64,000 bases of DNA, taken from contig CAVSZC010000005.1 in assembly GCA_963732365.1 (NCBI GenBank), positions 1,834,777-1,898,776 of the forward strand. The letters run 5' to 3'. The notes under the pieces are model-generated. The model was not told the DNA's origin, ran no database searches, and saw only the letters and a list, made by a program, of their open reading frames with translations. This stretch comes from an uncultured Bacteroidales bacterium. Lineage in GTDB: Bacteria; Bacteroidota; Bacteroidia; Bacteroidales; VadinHA17. This document shows positions 57,632 to 64,000 of the stretch, one piece after another. The position numbers and the translations under genes were made by a program. Position 1 is the first letter of the stretch; every line of letters begins with the position of its first letter.

Positions 57632-58056
57632 GGATAACGATCTGGCAATAAAATTAGTAGTTGTTGCCTGACGCCGCACCTGACAGAGTCCGGAGATCCC
57701 TCCTCAGACGGGGCCAGAAAGTTGTCATGTGGCGACCCGCTCGAGCGCAGTGAGCATCGGCAGTGCAAGGACTCCTTCGCCAAGGCTTCGGAGTCCGAAG
57801 AAGGGAATTCTGTGCCCCGACGAAGTGAAGCGGAATCGGGGGTACAAGGCTGATCGGGGCAGGTAACAAGTCAAGGTACACAGAGTTTGTTAGTGGGCAC
57901 TGGCGCGATCGCGGTATAAGGTATTACAAATTTGTCTTGGGTGCAGGAACAAAAGCAAAAACCGTGACACCAGGAGGCCGCCAGCCACAGAACTGTCATC
58001 TTTATTCAGAAAATTCTCGCGGCACACATTCCAATGACATATACCGACCTGTTAGC
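57632..58056. other. GC-rich non-coding element E1 (425 nt), paralogue of 63333-63787, occupying the spacer after the last cassette ORF
   Basis: It shares with E2 the left end GGATAA-N6-GGCAATAAAATTAG, the CCTGACSCCGCACC block, GGCCAGRAA...GACCC, GTGCAAGGA, an 88-nt core (57895-57982) and the right arm CCAATGACATATACCGACCTGTTAGC. No ORF is conserved between the copies. Confidence 0.6.
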
Positions 58057-58450: not shown

Positions 58451-58470
58451 CCACTTATTTTTAAATGTGT

Positions 58471-58599
58471 GCTAACGGTTGCGTGTATGACACGTTGGGG
58501 ATTGCGGGCTTCGTACGTATCCGCCGACACAAACGCTGATGCGGGACAGAACGCTTGATTTAACCACTTAAACCCCAATGTTTAATACACGATGTTAGC
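58471..58599 (-). other. attC-like recombination site (129 bp imperfect palindrome)
   Basis: Plus strand reads GCTAAC-GGTTG-CGTGTAT-GACACG-TTGGGG ... CCCCAA-TGTTTA-ATACACG-AT-GTTAGC. Paired R- and L-box-like stems are interrupted by unpaired bases, with a roughly 70-nt central region. Confidence 0.55.
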
Positions 58600-58610
58600 A
58601 GAAGCCATTT

Positions 58611-60515
58611 TTAGAATGCTACTTGTCTTAATACTGTCTTTCCAATTGGTATAAGTTCCACTTTTTCTAATTTGCCTGTATTTTGATTGATTAATTTTGT
58701 CTGTATTTTTCCTTTTTCGTATTTTGTTTTTACGCCTTCTTTGAATGAATATCTTTCAGGCGAAGTTGGTTCATAAGTGAAGTCAATGAAATTCTCCATA
58801 TATGTTTTCCCAGTAATTTCTTTCGCATTGATTGGCGAAGCATAAAGCAACGCACCATAAGTAAAATAATGAGAACCCGTATTATCTGTGTTTATTTGAA
58901 TATCTGTTTCAAATGAAATTTTCACATAGTCATTTGGAGAAAAATCTCTTTCAATAACTATGAAGTCATTCTCAATTCTAAATTTTTCATTCGTTTTTAT
59001 ATTTTTTGTCCAGTTGGGGTTCCTTATTTTTAGTGTGAAATATGACGGATTTGCCTGGACTATTTTAAATTTAAAATCGTTTTCGGCAGGATATTGCGTT
59101 ATATTTTCAATTTGTATTTTGTTTCCATTGAGTGTGGTTTCCAAAATATTCGGCATTAATAGTGTAGCAACCAAAGTTGTTTCGTTTTCTTTCATCCAGG
59201 AATTTTGAACAAAATAAGGAGAAATTCTACCAGCGTTAGGATTACAACACACAGCTACATCTTGATGAGCAGGCGAATATTTATAGCGAGTTTGCTTTCT
59301 GTCGGGTTCAATTTCACCATTTTTAGTGCCTAACATTTCAAAGGAATTGTCGGTTTTTAAGTAAGCAATACAAGAGTGTTGAGGATTTCTTGAACCTTGT
59401 GCTGCATTATAAAAAATATTCTCCACAACATCGCCCTCATCAGCGTTTCCGGTTTTTTGAAATAACAGGCAATAACTATCCAACAATTCTTGTAGTGAAC
59501 AATACTCGTAACCGGTATGTGTAGCATCTGCGTTGCGTTCGGCAATCCATTCGTCACCAATTGCACCACCACTAATGGTGGTTACGTTTTTAATTCGTTC
59601 TAAATATATTTTTAATGCTTTGTTTATTTCCTCAATATTGCCGGCATATTTGGCTATAATTAATGCTCTTATGTGTTCAAACGTATGTACACCGTGTGAT
59701 TTTAATTTATAGGTCGGATTCAGAATGTTTTTCAGTTGTGCATCGGCTTCTGATTGATAGGTGTTTGAAAAATCCTGATAGAGAAACAAAGAATATTGTC
59801 TGTACTTTTCATCTTTTGTTTGAAAATACATTCTTTCCAAAACATCAGTAAACGTTAAGCCGTGTGAAACACCACCATTAAAAGATGTTCCGGAACTAAA
59901 CGGGCTTGAAGCATTGATGGGATAATTCTCCATTACGTTTTCTACGGCGCTTTCAACTGCTTTTAAAACTTTTTCGTCTTTTGTATATTCGTAATAGGCC
60001 AGCAAACCGCGGTATAAAGTTGCTTTTGACCACAGTTCGCCATTTTCTGAATTGAACTTGTATCGTAGCTCTTTATCATAAATACCTATATACCCATCTT
60101 CATCCTGTGTGGTTAAAATGCGTTCAATATAGTTCTTTACCTTGTCAGTATCCTTTTTATCGTCTAATAATAAAACATTTCGTAGATAACCATCCCACCA
60201 GTTTGATTGCGTTTCGCTGTTCCACCATTTGTACTGGTCGTCACCGGCCGCATCACCTTCTTTTAGATTTCCCAAGTCTTTAGCTTTGCTATTTTCCCCC
60301 AATCTTCCTGAGGCATAAATAGGATCGTTAATAAGTTCAGGCACAATCCTGTCGAGGTTTCCAACAAAACCAGCCACATCTTTTTGCATTTGTTCTTTGA
60401 GCCACCCTGTTGGTTTAACACTCCCGAAAGGCAAAGTATTGAATATTTCGGATGATTCCTGAGCATTCAGATGTATGGAACATAATAATAAAATTGTTAC
60501 TATTAGGACTCTCAT
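58611..60515 (-). CDS. GH127-like (beta-L-arabinofuranosidase / DUF1680 family) glycoside hydrolase
   Basis: Signal peptide. GYEYCS (Glu-x-Cys) and VAVCCNPN (Cys-Cys) match the Zn/cysteine catalytic-site pattern of GH127. Confidence 0.65.
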   Translation of the reverse strand: MRVLIVTILLLCSIHLNAQESSEIFNTLPFGSVKPTGWLKEQMQKDVAGFVGNLDRIVPELINDPIYASGRLGENSKAKDLGNLKEGDAAGDDQYKWWNSETQSNWWDGYLRNVLLLDDKKDTDKVKNYIERILTTQDEDGYIGIYDKELRYKFNSENGELWSKATLYRGLLAYYEYTKDEKVLKAVESAVENVMENYPINASSPFSSGTSFNGGVSHGLTFTDVLERMYFQTKDEKYRQYSLFLYQDFSNTYQSEADAQLKNILNPTYKLKSHGVHTFEHIRALIIAKYAGNIEEINKALKIYLERIKNVTTISGGAIGDEWIAERNADATHTGYEYCSLQELLDSYCLLFQKTGNADEGDVVENIFYNAAQGSRNPQHSCIAYLKTDNSFEMLGTKNGEIEPDRKQTRYKYSPAHQDVAVCCNPNAGRISPYFVQNSWMKENETTLVATLLMPNILETTLNGNKIQIENITQYPAENDFKFKIVQANPSYFTLKIRNPNWTKNIKTNEKFRIENDFIVIERDFSPNDYVKISFETDIQINTDNTGSHYFTYGALLYASPINAKEITGKTYMENFIDFTYEPTSPERYSFKEGVKTKYEKGKIQTKLINQNTGKLEKVELIPIGKTVLRQVAF

Positions 60516-62668
60516 TTTGTTGTCATTTTAAATATTAAATTGCCTCCATTCATTATATCCTCATAAGTAATAAATTGTTTATCGTATTTATTCCCATTTA
60601 AAAACCGGGTTTCATTATAAATAGCATCCTCAGAAAAGTTTGTAGCTTTAATGTTAAACTTTTTCTTGCCAGAAATACAAATACTTGCTTTTTCCACTTG
60701 TGGGCTCCCCAAAACAAACTCGCCATTTGCAGGATTAATGGGATAAAAACCTATCGTTGAAAGTATATACCAGGCACTCATTTGTCCGCAATCATCGTTA
60801 CCAATCATTCCGTCAGGTGTGTTGTTATGAAATTCATTGATCACCTGATGAATATATTTTTGTCCTGTTTTAGGTTCGGTACTGTAAGCATACAAATAAA
60901 TGATGTGATGGCTGGGCTCGTTGCCGTGTGCATATTGCCCGATCATTGCTTCTTGTCCTAAAAATTTATTTGGATTTTCGGCTTCAGTGCTAAAAAACTC
61001 ATTCAATTTTTTGCTGAAATTTTCTTTTCCGCCCAATAATTTCATAACGCCATTCAGGTCATATTGCGTTGATGTCCAAAAATATTGCCAGGCGTTTGCC
61101 TCTGTATAATCGCCGGGGTTATTCATTGGCGAAGTGGCCATTAGAGGATTAAAGGGTTTTCGCCAATTTCCTTTGGTGTCTTTTCCTCTGAAAAAGGTAG
61201 TTTCTTTGTCGTAAATGTTTTGGTAATAATTGGCTCTTTTCGAGAAAGTGTCAGCTATTTCATTTTTGCCTAATTTCTTTGCCATTTCGGCTACACACCA
61301 ATCATCGTAACCACTTTCCAACGTTCTGGAAACTGCTTCATTGTCTAATTTGTCAAAAGGGTAATAGCCATATTGATTGTACAATTCCCAATCGGAATTG
61401 ATGTGTGATTTGGTAGATGTTTCTACCATTGCTTTTAAAGCTTCGTTGGCATCAAATCCTTTAAAACCATTTTGGTAAGCAGAAAGAATCATCGGAATGG
61501 CGTGATTGCCAATCATACAATAATTGTCTTGTCCCCAAGCTGTCCAAATAGGCAGAAATCCTTTGGCTTTGTGATGAATGAGCATCGTTTGAACAATACC
61601 ATCAATTTTCTCGGGTGCTATAATTTGCAACAAAGGGAACACCCCACGGTATACATCCCAAATAGAAAGGGTAGAGTAATATTCTTTATTTGGTGCAGTC
61701 ACAATTTTATCGTCAACGCCTCTGTATTTTCCGTCAATATCGGCAATGTTGGAAGGTTGTAAAAACAAGTGATAGAGCGAAGTATAAAATATTTCTTTCT
61801 GATTTTGTGGAGCTTCAATAGTTATTCTACTTAAATAGTCTTCCCAGGTGTTAAGATTTTTTTGATATACTTTTTGAAAATCCCAATGCGGAATTTCGGT
61901 TTTCATATTGAGTTTTGCGCCTTCTACAGAAACAGAAGACAATGCAATTTTTACTTTTAATTGTCTATTCTTTGAGAGCAAAAAATCAAGTAAATATTTT
62001 GGGGCCTTTTCGTTTTCATTTTTGTCGAGAAGGGTTGATTTTACAAAAGGTTGGTCAAAAGTTAGTGTATAGAAGTATTTTCTATTCACCCAATTTTGGG
62101 TAGAGCAATAGCCAGAGATAGTAGTGTTGTTTTCAATTTTTACATCACTTTCAATTACTAATCCTTTTTGATTATTTTCGCTAAATGCAAACCGCAAGCC
62201 GTGTTGCAAATCCACTAAAACCTGCGCCTCTTTTTCCGGGAAAGTATATAGATGAAAAGCCACTCTTTCGGAGCAGGTTAGTTCTACTCTTACATCGTCT
62301 CTTTTGGTCAAAGCATAATAACCTACCTTACCAATTTCGGTTTCTTTGTAGTAAGATTTTTTTAGTTTTTCTTTTTTGGGATTGATTGGAAGTAACAATA
62401 CATCTCCCATTTCGTTAATGCCTGTTCCACTAAAGCGAGTTTGCGAAAAGCCTAACAACAGAGTGTCTTTGTACTGATAGCCACTAGTATGATTCCACCC
62501 AAAGTCGCGATTGTCGGGTCCGGGCTGTACCATTCCAAATGGCATGGAAGGTCCTGGAAAAGTATGTCCTGTTCCGTCAGTTCCGATAAAAACATTTACG
62601 AGTTTTGTGTTTTGTGCGAAACTTGTCGAACAACAAAATAGAAATATGATGAGTAATTTATTTGTCAT
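60512..62668 (-). CDS. GH92-family alpha-mannosidase
   Basis: Signal peptide, then VNVFIGTDGTGHTFPGPSMPFGMVQPGPDN, the GH92 N-terminal signature. 718 aa. 4-nt overlap with the next gene. Confidence 0.85.
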   Translation of the reverse strand: MTNKLLIIFLFCCSTSFAQNTKLVNVFIGTDGTGHTFPGPSMPFGMVQPGPDNRDFGWNHTSGYQYKDTLLLGFSQTRFSGTGINEMGDVLLLPINPKKEKLKKSYYKETEIGKVGYYALTKRDDVRVELTCSERVAFHLYTFPEKEAQVLVDLQHGLRFAFSENNQKGLVIESDVKIENNTTISGYCSTQNWVNRKYFYTLTFDQPFVKSTLLDKNENEKAPKYLLDFLLSKNRQLKVKIALSSVSVEGAKLNMKTEIPHWDFQKVYQKNLNTWEDYLSRITIEAPQNQKEIFYTSLYHLFLQPSNIADIDGKYRGVDDKIVTAPNKEYYSTLSIWDVYRGVFPLLQIIAPEKIDGIVQTMLIHHKAKGFLPIWTAWGQDNYCMIGNHAIPMILSAYQNGFKGFDANEALKAMVETSTKSHINSDWELYNQYGYYPFDKLDNEAVSRTLESGYDDWCVAEMAKKLGKNEIADTFSKRANYYQNIYDKETTFFRGKDTKGNWRKPFNPLMATSPMNNPGDYTEANAWQYFWTSTQYDLNGVMKLLGGKENFSKKLNEFFSTEAENPNKFLGQEAMIGQYAHGNEPSHHIIYLYAYSTEPKTGQKYIHQVINEFHNNTPDGMIGNDDCGQMSAWYILSTIGFYPINPANGEFVLGSPQVEKASICISGKKKFNIKATNFSEDAIYNETRFLNGNKYDKQFITYEDIMNGGNLIFKMTTK

Positions 62669-62700
62669 CTTTTTGAGTATGGTTATTTCTTAAGGTTTCT

Positions 62701-62906
62701 GCTAACGTTCGGCGGAACCGAGGATCCTGCCAAAAAACTACACTTTAGCCTGGAACTATGTCAGGGACGAGCTCATGAGCCACGAACCGTTGTGAGTGGC
62801 GAATAATGTGGCGTTGCCTCAGAGTCGCGGTGGCGCGCCGTGCCCCGCACCGATCCGTCAGCTGACGGATGTCAGGAGAGGCAATGACATATACCAACCT
62901 GTTAGC
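62701..62906 (-). other. long (206 bp) attC-like spacer E3
   Basis: Bounded by plus-strand GCTAAC (62701) and GTTAGC (62901). The outer arms can pair: GCTAAC + GTT + GG with bulges, then TGCC/GGCA. The right arm GCAATGACATATACCAACCTGTTAGC is shared with E1 and E2. Confidence 0.4.
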
Positions 62907-63332: not shown

Positions 63333-63787
63333 GGATAATTGCCCGGCAATAAAATTAGCAGGTGTTACCTGACCCCGCACCGGATTGAATCCCGGTACCC
63401 GCCAGCAGCAGGCGGGCCAGGAAACTGTCACGTCGAAGACCCTGACTGAGCGAAGCGAACGTCATGGGGTGCAAGGAGGGTACGGCGGGTTTTTTGCCAT
63501 TCAGTTACAAAGTTAGTTAAGCATTACGCGTGTCGCGGTACAACTTTGATCGGAGCCGCGAATTTATCCCCGGTTATATAGCTTATGGAGGGCACTGGAA
63601 CGATCGCGGTATAAGGTATTACAAATTTGTCTTGGGTGCAGGAACAAAAGCAAAAACCGTGACACCAGGAGGCCGCCCCTGACGGTATCGTCAGGGGCAG
63701 GCCGCACCGCTGACCACTTAACGGTCCTCTTTAGCTAGAAAGTTCTCGCGGTGCGGAAAAGCCAATGACATATACCGACCTGTTAGC
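63333..63787. other. GC-rich non-coding element E2 (455 nt), paralogue of 57632-58056
   Basis: Same modular layout as E1, with core 63590-63677. Contains local hairpins CCGG-ATTGAATC-CCGG, CCCGCC-AGCAGCA-GGCGGG and CCCCTGACGGTATCGTCAGGGG. No ORF of 60 aa or more on either strand. Confidence 0.6.
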
Positions 63788-64000
63788 TGCTGGTGGTGTT
63801 TTCAAATGTGACAAGAAACGTTTCCGGTGTCATGACAGGTAGAGAACTATCCTTGTAGTCTTTAATATTTCTTGTGATTATACAATCTACCTTTTTTTGT
63901 TCTTGTGCTGCAAAATATTGAATGGAATCCTCAAAGTCTTTAAAATCCGAGGTAAGCGCCGACTTGACAATATCACTATCAACTTTCAGAATACCTACCA
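63783..64000 (-). CDS. cassette ORF: C-terminal part of a PIN-domain (VapC-like) toxin; the gene runs off the right edge
   Basis: My own translation of the minus strand gives ...FEDSIQYFAAQEQKKVDCIITRNIKDYKDSSLPVMTPETFL...*. The stop TAA (63783-63785) lies inside the GCTAAC arm. Confidence 0.6.
   Translation of the reverse strand, partial: VGILKVDSDIVKSALTSDFKDFEDSIQYFAAQEQKKVDCIITRNIKDYKDSSLPVMTPETFLVTFENTTSS

Follow-up and report, generated by a model that had tools for sequence, protein, structure and literature searches.

A long chimeric attC-like site, probably disabled, in an integron-like cassette array of an uncultured Bacteroidales bacterium

The closest described counterparts of the locus analysed here are integron attC sites, above all the homogeneous, species-specific repeats of sedentary chromosomal integrons (e.g. 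the Vibrio cholerae repeats, VCR), which carry RYYYAAC and GTTRRRY end boxes and mutually pairing inner boxes. Integron attC sites are ~57-141 bp in length, and the standard integron finders require the IntI-specific domain in the integrase and cap the length of attC at ~200 bp. Recombination in integrons acts on the folded single-stranded DNA of the strand antisense to the genes (PMC2727003). Integrons are almost unreported in Bacteroidetes (IntegronFinder surveys: PMC4889954, PMC9024848), and what defined the integrons of archaea (Ghaly et al. 2022, PMC9668308) was the combination of an IntI bearing the IntI-specific domain with attC sites recognised by the standard covariance model. The system described below resembles these archaeal integrons and the few from Bacteroidetes (IntegronFinder 2.0, PMC9024848) in being a cassette array outside the Proteobacteria that was found by genome mining; unlike the archaeal integrons, it has neither the IntI domain nor attC sites of the standard kind.

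The element studied here, E2, occupies 455 nt (63333-63787) of the window, that is, of the whole stretch of 64,000 nt of DNA from an uncultured Bacteroidales bacterium that was analysed. A cyanobacterial reading of the DNA, based on GCGATCGC, was rejected in view of the T9SS, GH92 and GH127 genes and the Bacteroidales relatives. The original prediction had set E2 beside a second copy, E1, as two elements that are alignable at both ends and diverged in between, and the alignment agreed with this description, with a mean column identity of 79% and a block of 88 nt that is 98% identical. E2 is indeed a paralogue of E1, with conserved hairpins; the two copies are 5.7 kb apart and both lie between minus-strand ORFs. 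We give a probability of about 0.8 to the reading that E2 is a chimeric site, probably no longer functional, belonging to a family of giant attC-like recombination sites in a chromosomal integron-like array. The main elements of the locus are the following.

57632-58056, plus strand: E1, chimera paralogous to E2, with which the array ends beside rsgA (search and alignment with E2)
58462-58595: short site of another subtype (~134 nt), flanked by the 125-aa ORF and the GH127 gene, reading GTGTGCTAAC, GGTTGCGTGTAT ... ATACACGATG, TTAGCAG
62700-62906: type A-like site after the 125/137-aa ORF, reading TTCTGCTAAC, GTTCGGCGG ... CCTG, TTAGCC
63333-63787, plus strand: E2, chimeric attC-like site after the PIN/DUF6364 cassette, left part type B/C-like and right part type A
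63783-64000, minus strand: 3' portion of the gene for a PIN-domain protein, the cassette preceding E2 (PIN_3, E=1.4e-19 over all 143 aa of the product); a DUF6364 gene lies upstream

The site family and its cassettes

When the genome was searched with E2, the last 138 nt of the element were found to recur ~20 times. The family amounts to ~20 repeats in the genome and hundreds in the genus, the spacers being minus-strand gene cassettes, and the copies, which follow one another at distances of 0.5-4 kb, occupy the stretch between E1 and the end of contig C5 as well as the first 10 kb of contig C1. Far from this main array, sites of the same family were also observed isolated or in small groups (C5:1387041-1403216, C5:141611-159761 and C3:3706-3728 of this genome, G000). 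The left end common to the copies is RYYYAAC followed by GTTCGGCGGTATGTG, and the common right end is ATGACATATACCGACCTG followed by TT and then by variable bases (GTTAGC, GTTAGG, GTTATG, etc.); the right end ATATACCGACCTG followed by TTRRRY is present ~20 times in the genome, and the RYYYAAC and GTTRRRY end boxes are found in the family generally.

As in attC/VCR sites, consecutive sites show a cassette-specific complementarity. The variable tail behind the GTT of one copy equals, in reverse complement, the bases that precede the AAC of the next copy, as seen in dozens of consecutive sites from six genomes (for example, GTTAGGCTGC then CAGCCTAAC, GTTAGGCT then AGCCTAAC, and GTTATGGGC then GCCCATAAC). 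The window contains two such pairs, GTTAGCACAC/GTGTGCTAAC and GTTAGCAGAA/TTCTGCTAAC, which involve the two further sites at 58462-58595 and 62700-62906; in the first of them, the left box of site 58462-58595 is complementary to the E1 tail GTTAGCACAC, and the right-end GTTAGC of that site is at 58594. The left box of E2 matches the tail of its neighbour only partly (CGGATAAT vs the expected CGGCTAAC). Judged from the sequences, this complementarity between tail and box of consecutive sites is characteristic of the gene cassettes of integrons. The left arm of site 62700-62906 was also seen to carry an insert of ~90 nt (AAAAACTACACTTTAGCCTGGAACTATGTCAGGGACGAGCTCATGAGCC...), which is present as well in two sites located ~1.1 and ~3.3 kb beyond the right end of the window.

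Congeners hold large arrays of the same site family. The family comprises at least three subtypes that differ in their inner boxes and coexist in one array.

Type A, 215-335 nt: left end AAC GTTCGG CGGTATGTG, right end CATATACCG ACCT GTT
Type B, 216-584 nt: left end AAC GGCC CGGCAATATGGG, right end CCCATATTG TCCGT GTT
Type C, ~320 nt, one copy: left end GGCAATAAGATTAG, right end CTATTAATTTTATTGTCCGTGTT

A normal site is delimited by the end boxes RYYYAAC ... GTTRRRY and by inner boxes that pair with each other over ~20-30 bp, and a long, modular and hairpin-rich interior separates these boxes. An internal GCAAAAACCGTGAC is present in types A, B and C. Repeated GGTACAAATTGTC and TTACAAATTTGTC motifs and the near-palindrome ACAAATTTGT were observed in the interiors of all three types (e.g. 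L056:18536-18960), as was a long-range pairing of GGCGCGTGTTTTTGC with GCAAAAACCGTGAC. The conservation of the interiors exceeds what folding needs and may reflect a protein-binding site; more generally, such long, sequence-conserved interiors hint at an extra function, e.g. protein binding, a promoter or a terminator. The length of the sites and these interiors set the family apart from attC/VCR sites, since its members measure 215-584 nt, and E2 455 nt, compared with ~57-141 nt for attC, and since they combine a long, modular, sequence-conserved interior with optional hairpin inserts and with at least three subtypes per array. To our knowledge, the sites of this family are two to five times longer than any known attC.

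The ORFs between the sites are mutually unrelated, and all of them are on the minus strand. As described for attC/VCR arrays, the stop codon overlaps the first box, the site sequences are homogeneous per lineage, and toxin-antitoxin cassettes are interspersed. Several toxin-antitoxin-like pairs were noted in the array stretch L026:8559-15100 (G000 C5:1898559-1905100), i.e. PIN with DUF6364, ParE with an 81-aa ORF, and HTH_3 with Gp49 (HigBA-like), and the same stretch contains a formylglycine-generating-enzyme-like gene and a TIG-domain protein. Positions 58611-62668 of the window form one cassette of ~4.1 kb with overlapping GH127-like and GH92 genes, an unusually large metabolic cargo.

The polarity of the cassettes was revealed by a natural difference between two array segments of this genome, C5:1904230-1906835 and C1:5496-8838, which are 96% identical and differ by exactly one cassette (a bPH-domain ORF); their origin is either the duplication of a segment inside the array or the merging of two strains during assembly. 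The C5 site follows the left parent up to AAC GTTCGGCGGTATGTG and the right parent thereafter, and because the switch point falls in AAC/GTTCGGCGGTATGTG, the exchange took place in the left box of the plus strand. This single natural case of cassette gain or loss with a crossover inside the core box is a further likeness to attC. It also follows from the one-cassette difference that a cassette consists of a minus-strand ORF plus the site downstream of that ORF. The minus strand corresponds to the integron "top" strand and the plus strand to the "bottom" strand; the opposite assignment, with the plus strand as "top" and the crossover at the right box, was rejected on the basis of the same natural difference. 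This polarity makes E2 the site of the PIN cassette, and E1 is the site of the cassette of the 125-aa ORF.

Hybrid make-up and arms of E2

E2 belongs to this family and is a chimera of its subtypes. Its first 320 nt and its left arm GGCAATAAAATTAG are of type B/C, as revealed by aligning the arms to type B/C left arms, and positions 63650-63787 match the right halves of type A sites.

63333-63339, plus strand: left end box GGATAAT, a degenerate RYYYAAC on the crossover side (AAC changed to AAT; normal sites read ..TAAC followed by G)
63345-63358, plus strand: left inner box GGCAATAAAATTAG of the type C/B kind, matching GGCAATAAGATTAG of the congener type C site L056:17577
63468-63598, plus strand: type B-homologous interior, 76-84% identical to repeats in genomes G012, G015, G016, G018 and G029
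63590-63677, plus strand: core of 88 nt common to E1 and E2, spanning the junction from type B to type A, 98% identical to E1 57895-57982
63650-63663, plus strand: GCAAAAACCGTGAC, common to all subtypes, the likely joint of the chimera, where the matches of other genomes stop or start
63761-63787, plus strand: type A right arm GCCAATGACATATACCGACCTG followed by TTAGC; TTA at 63783-63785 coincides with the TAA stop codon of the PIN gene

E2 would have arisen by the fusion of a gene-proximal type A half and a distal type B/C half at the 14-nt GCAAAAACCGTGAC, the simplest route being a homologous or microhomology-mediated deletion of the intervening DNA, a route that we infer from two copies in one genome. 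A match running across the GCAAAAACCGTGAC joint was found only in E1 and E2 when 65 genomes of the genus were searched. A junction-specific pattern gave a sole hit in a metagenome collection, which was rejected as a candidate E-type hybrid because it is an ordinary type B site.

The fact that E1 has the same joint as E2 makes the two elements paralogues, and their sequences suggest descent from a single event that fused a type A half to a type B/C half, or else from separate events of this same rare kind. Outside the joint, the flanks of E1 and E2 are a mosaic. The type A half of E1 has neither the hairpin nor the 5' half of the 9-bp helix that are described below for E2, the interior of E1 holds the type C sequence GGCAGGTAACAAGTCAAGGTACAC, and its left end box is GGATAAC. 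The presence of a 98% identical core amid divergent flanks suggests a later gene conversion between E1 and E2. At 63599, inside E2, a candidate left arm of type A (GGAAC GAT CG CGGTATAAG) was rejected, as its duplex was of -8.0 kcal/mol and the region is plain type B interior.

The two ends of E2 derive from different subtypes and no longer pair. The right arm of the type C site L056:17577 is CTATTAATTTTATTGTCCGTGTTA, and no partner for the left inner box GGCAATAAAATTAG was found in the right arm of E2. The calculated arm duplexes of E2 and E1 were of -5.6 and -4.6 kcal/mol, respectively, compared with mean values of -17.7 kcal/mol for type A sites (n=64, range -24.5 to -10.2) and -17.5 kcal/mol for type B sites (n=16), and a control with mismatched arms (type B left with type A right) gave a mean of -10.8 kcal/mol. 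When the consensus arms were paired by hand, one proved 2-3 nt longer than the other, and one bulged A or T could be drawn on the right arm, in an ambiguous register, as a candidate for the extrahelical bases that the integrase recognises and that determine the choice of strand in true attC sites. The arms of E2 are, hence, poorly complementary, and the pairing of the two arms as an imperfect hairpin, a feature of attC that is found in the normal members of the family, is lacking in E2. As a cross-subtype chimera with arms that do not pair, E2 differs from attC/VCR sites. The right end box of E2, GTTAGCT, is intact, and the left box is altered (AAC to AAT). The unpaired arms, together with the mutated crossover core, make it most likely that E2 is a fossil boundary that holds the PIN toxin cassette fixed in place, and E2 would no longer be recombinable as a unit.

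The location of both elements upstream of a start codon on the minus strand, at a distance of 3-40 nt, would also suit a minus-strand promoter or a regulatory 5' leader, serving the 125/137-aa ORF in the case of E2 and rsgA in the case of E1. Cassettes distant from the start of the array need their own promoters, and the site interiors are unusually conserved in sequence, which are two further points in favor of this explanation. Nevertheless, every site of the array precedes the next ORF, and the position is for that reason uninformative by itself; moreover, the genes downstream of E1 and E2 are unrelated, the parts of E2 nearest to the gene are the end box and the inner box of a recombination site, and no riboswitch or leader family was matched in Rfam. 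We therefore consider a role as leader improbable.

Local hairpins, strand bias and the RNA alternative

Several local hairpins were identified in E2, most of which recur in other members of the family.

63379-63396, plus strand: hairpin ACCGG (63379-83)/CCGGT (63392-96), predicted minimum-energy fold
63398-63416, plus strand: GC hairpin CCCGCC-AGCAGCA-GGCGGG, with an equivalent CCCCGCGCCAGCGGGG hairpin in several type B copies
63440-63468, plus strand: optional module CCC-TGAC/GTCA-(T)-GGG, which holds the stem noted in the original prediction; apex GCGAAGC at 63450-63456
63676-63697, plus strand: type A hairpin CCCCTGACG-GTAT-CGTCAGGGG (folding and type A alignment, helices 1-2)
63702-63756, plus strand: 9-bp helix CCGCACCGC (63702-63710)/GCGGTGCGG (63748-63756) with two small hairpins inside (covariation and pair probability)

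The original prediction proposed that the 5' block CCGCACCG (63375-63382) pairs with CGGTGCGG (63749-63756), thereby closing E2 end to end into one domain. Both blocks are present at these positions, and yet the proposed closure was not supported. CGGTGCGG is part of GCGGTGCGG, whose partner CCGCACCGC is 38 nt upstream, and this local helix of 9 bp exists in the family: among 53 type A copies, changes on both sides were found at 9/9 pairs and 96.6% of the cells were paired, a covariation that was reached by 0/500 shuffles, and sliding the helix by 1-3 columns reduced the paired cells to 39-51%. Partition-function folds of E2 on both strands, with DNA and RNA parameters, gave a probability of 0.73-0.95 for the local helix and of 0.005-0.075 for the end-to-end helix. 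Most of the 5' block CCGCACCG is occupied by the ACCGG/CCGGT hairpin, which recurs in many type B copies and whose pair probability was ~0.55-0.70 with DNA and plus-strand RNA and 0.02 with minus-strand RNA (values obtained for a range that is one base off and covers 4/5 pairs). Furthermore, a perfect 8-mer inverted repeat with its halves at least 200 nt apart appears in 36% of the dinucleotide shuffles of E2.

The other structural claim was that E1 and E2 exchange all four pairs of a homologous stem with pairing kept. The bases are as quoted, GCTC (57739-57742)/GAGC (57752-57755) in E1 and TGAC (63443-63446)/GTCA (63461-63464) in E2. The larger alignment of homologues that had been called for could be collected, and the region of this stem was examined in an alignment (A3) of E1 and E2 guided by five relatives. 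In A3, the GAGC of E1 falls on a conserved loop motif (columns 49-52) and the GTCA of E2 on columns 53-56, so that the apparent exchange of four pairs arose because helices in different registers had been compared, and the two stems do not occupy homologous positions. The E1 pairing GCTC/GAGC showed zero double changes, its loop motif GAGC is conserved in all relatives, and the palindrome GCTCGAGC adjoins the E1 stem. The helix of the family is CCCCGC/GCGGGG, and the E2 stem occupies the same columns, with three double changes relative to it (C-G to T-A, C-G to A-T, and one more); 81.6% of the cells were paired in the family register vs 42-74% in slid versions. The part of the claim that stands is, accordingly, the one that concerns E2, whose hairpin appears to covary with its relatives in two or three compensatory pairs, although, with seven sequences from few lineages, this covariation remains suggestive. 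In E1, the helix is decayed in the family register.

This hairpin, which had a pair probability of 0.52-0.90 (0.75-0.90 with RNA parameters), is an optional insert between ..GTCAC and GGTGCAAGGA; besides E1 and E2, a minority of the type B copies have it (from G015, G008 and G029), and most type B copies lack it. The stem CCCTGAC...GTCAGGG was also found at a different place within a site of G015 and, in nested form, in a contig from a metagenome, and the module seems to spread within these sites. Its apex in E2, GCGAAGC (63450-63456), is known as an unusually stable DNA mini-hairpin; at the same position, the sister modules read GCATAGC, GTGAAGC and CCGTAGG. Throughout this genome, the module was found in E1 and E2 only, and the possibility that it is a genome-wide REP-like element was rejected on that account.

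As in attC/VCR sites, the strand that is antisense to the genes is predicted to fold better. The fold of the whole site was more stable on the plus strand in 63/64 type A and 16/16 type B sites, and so was the arm duplex in 60/64 and 15/16, respectively; in E2 itself, the two strands were about equal (-76.5 vs -75.7 kcal/mol). The plus strand is the more stable one because its conserved G-T pairs become A-C mismatches on the minus strand, and in the covarying helix G-T pairs outnumbered A-C pairs by 15 vs 5. The original prediction had taken a hairpin with G-U pairs on the plus strand of E1 as a weak hint of an RNA antisense to the cassettes. The preference for the plus strand proved right for the family as a whole; the antisense RNA was not supported, and such a bias is expected of attC sites, whose bottom-strand folding explains it without any RNA. 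By analogy with integrons, E2 would fold as single-stranded DNA, and the plus strand of the window would be the one recognised and exchanged by the neighbouring tyrosine recombinase.

A structured plus-strand noncoding RNA, encoded by E1 and E2, antisense to the cassettes and closed by the pairing of its ends, would draw on the same family-wide stability of the plus strand, on the excess of G-T/U over A-C in the covarying helix, and on the pair probability of the 63440-63468 hairpin with RNA parameters. We regard such an RNA as very improbable. The closing helix did not exceed a probability of 0.075, its 3' half belongs to the helix that covaries across 53 copies, and E1 keeps just GCCGC/GCGGC of the closing pairing. 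Moreover, the interior is a mosaic of optional modules, the elements are placed exactly at cassette boundaries and have end boxes, and a recombined attC strand predicts the same strand bias. In addition, Rfam gave zero matches at the gathering threshold in the whole window, and around E1, at E<=10, the only hits were to snoRNAs and miRNAs at chance level.

The least probable explanation is that E1 and E2 are two insertions in the array of a small nonautonomous mobile element (MITE-like or REP-like), as two hairpin-rich copies 5.7 kb apart with an 88-nt core 98% identical might suggest, because there are no terminal inverted repeats (arm duplex of -5.6 kcal/mol), no target-site duplication was seen, both halves are homologous to ordinary cassette-boundary sites in other genomes, the genome contains the hairpin module only in E1 and E2, and it holds no more copies of the element, the two known ones being both inside the array.

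The neighbouring recombinase and its relation to integron integrases

A tyrosine recombinase of 404 aa is encoded 1.5 kb past the first array site (L025:11623-12837, on contig C1 of G000), and its presence at the proximal end of the array is a likeness to the integron integrases (IntI; TIGR02249; VchIntIA, PDB 2A3V). The conserved motifs of its catalytic region align with those of IntI4, XerA and XerD. Unlike IntI, the recombinase is oriented like the cassettes, i.e. it is transcribed in the cassette direction, and it lacks ~40 residues at the position of the extra domain. Thus, in the comparison with IntI4 (PDB 2A3V), 27 residues (304-330) face the 69 residues (178-246) of the IntI-specific domain, and the match to TIGR02249 reached 196 bits, short of the 265 required, and is split in two, leaving out model positions 182-239. 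By sequence, its best relatives of solved structure are XerA and XerC-like proteins. A further difference from IntI is that ~130 aa are added at the N-terminus; this region, which contains the motifs LHYWHISD and WHHGPDNE and matched nothing in Pfam, is kept in relatives of the recombinase across Bacteroidota and might replace the missing IntI domain. A search of the genome for a better IntI candidate yielded none, and two ordinary paralogues of XerC/D size are present elsewhere.

Homologues of the recombinase were found on the array contig in three other genomes, a few kb from the sites in G015 and G080 and ~5 kb from them in G018. Relatives with 40-69% identity are common in Bacteroidota, and several of them are followed by repeat arrays, including that of Flavobacterium saccharophilum DSM 1811. 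By analogy with integrons, this Xer-like enzyme would catalyse the recombination of the cassettes. Because the recombinase lacks the IntI-specific domain, the name "integron" rests on analogy; the system may be integron-like in its working and fails the defining IntI test. A neighbouring recombinase that is not IntI also distinguishes the array from attC/VCR arrays.

It is the system around E2, and not E2 as such, that is novel. We see about an even chance that E2 and its relatives represent an undescribed integron analogue, widespread in Bacteroidota, that combines an Xer-like recombinase devoid of the IntI domain and provided with a new N-terminal region with giant (0.2-0.6 kb), modular, sequence-conserved sites of multiple subtypes that fold antisense to the genes. 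Since integron finders demand the IntI domain and an attC of at most ~200 bp, these arrays would be missed by them. In a full-text search of the literature, Xer-like cassette arrays in Bacteroidota were found to be undescribed in the texts covered, which is not proof of novelty.

What had appeared to be a candidate new RNA would, on the reading that we prefer, be the fossil of a recombination site. If the integron analogue is real, chimeras of the E type show that homologous recombination between the interiors of sites remodels the arrays and freezes cassettes. Should the Xer-like enzyme move the cassettes, the long conserved interiors of the sites would need a functional explanation, and the system would constitute a second, independent enzymatic solution to integron-type gene capture in a major phylum.
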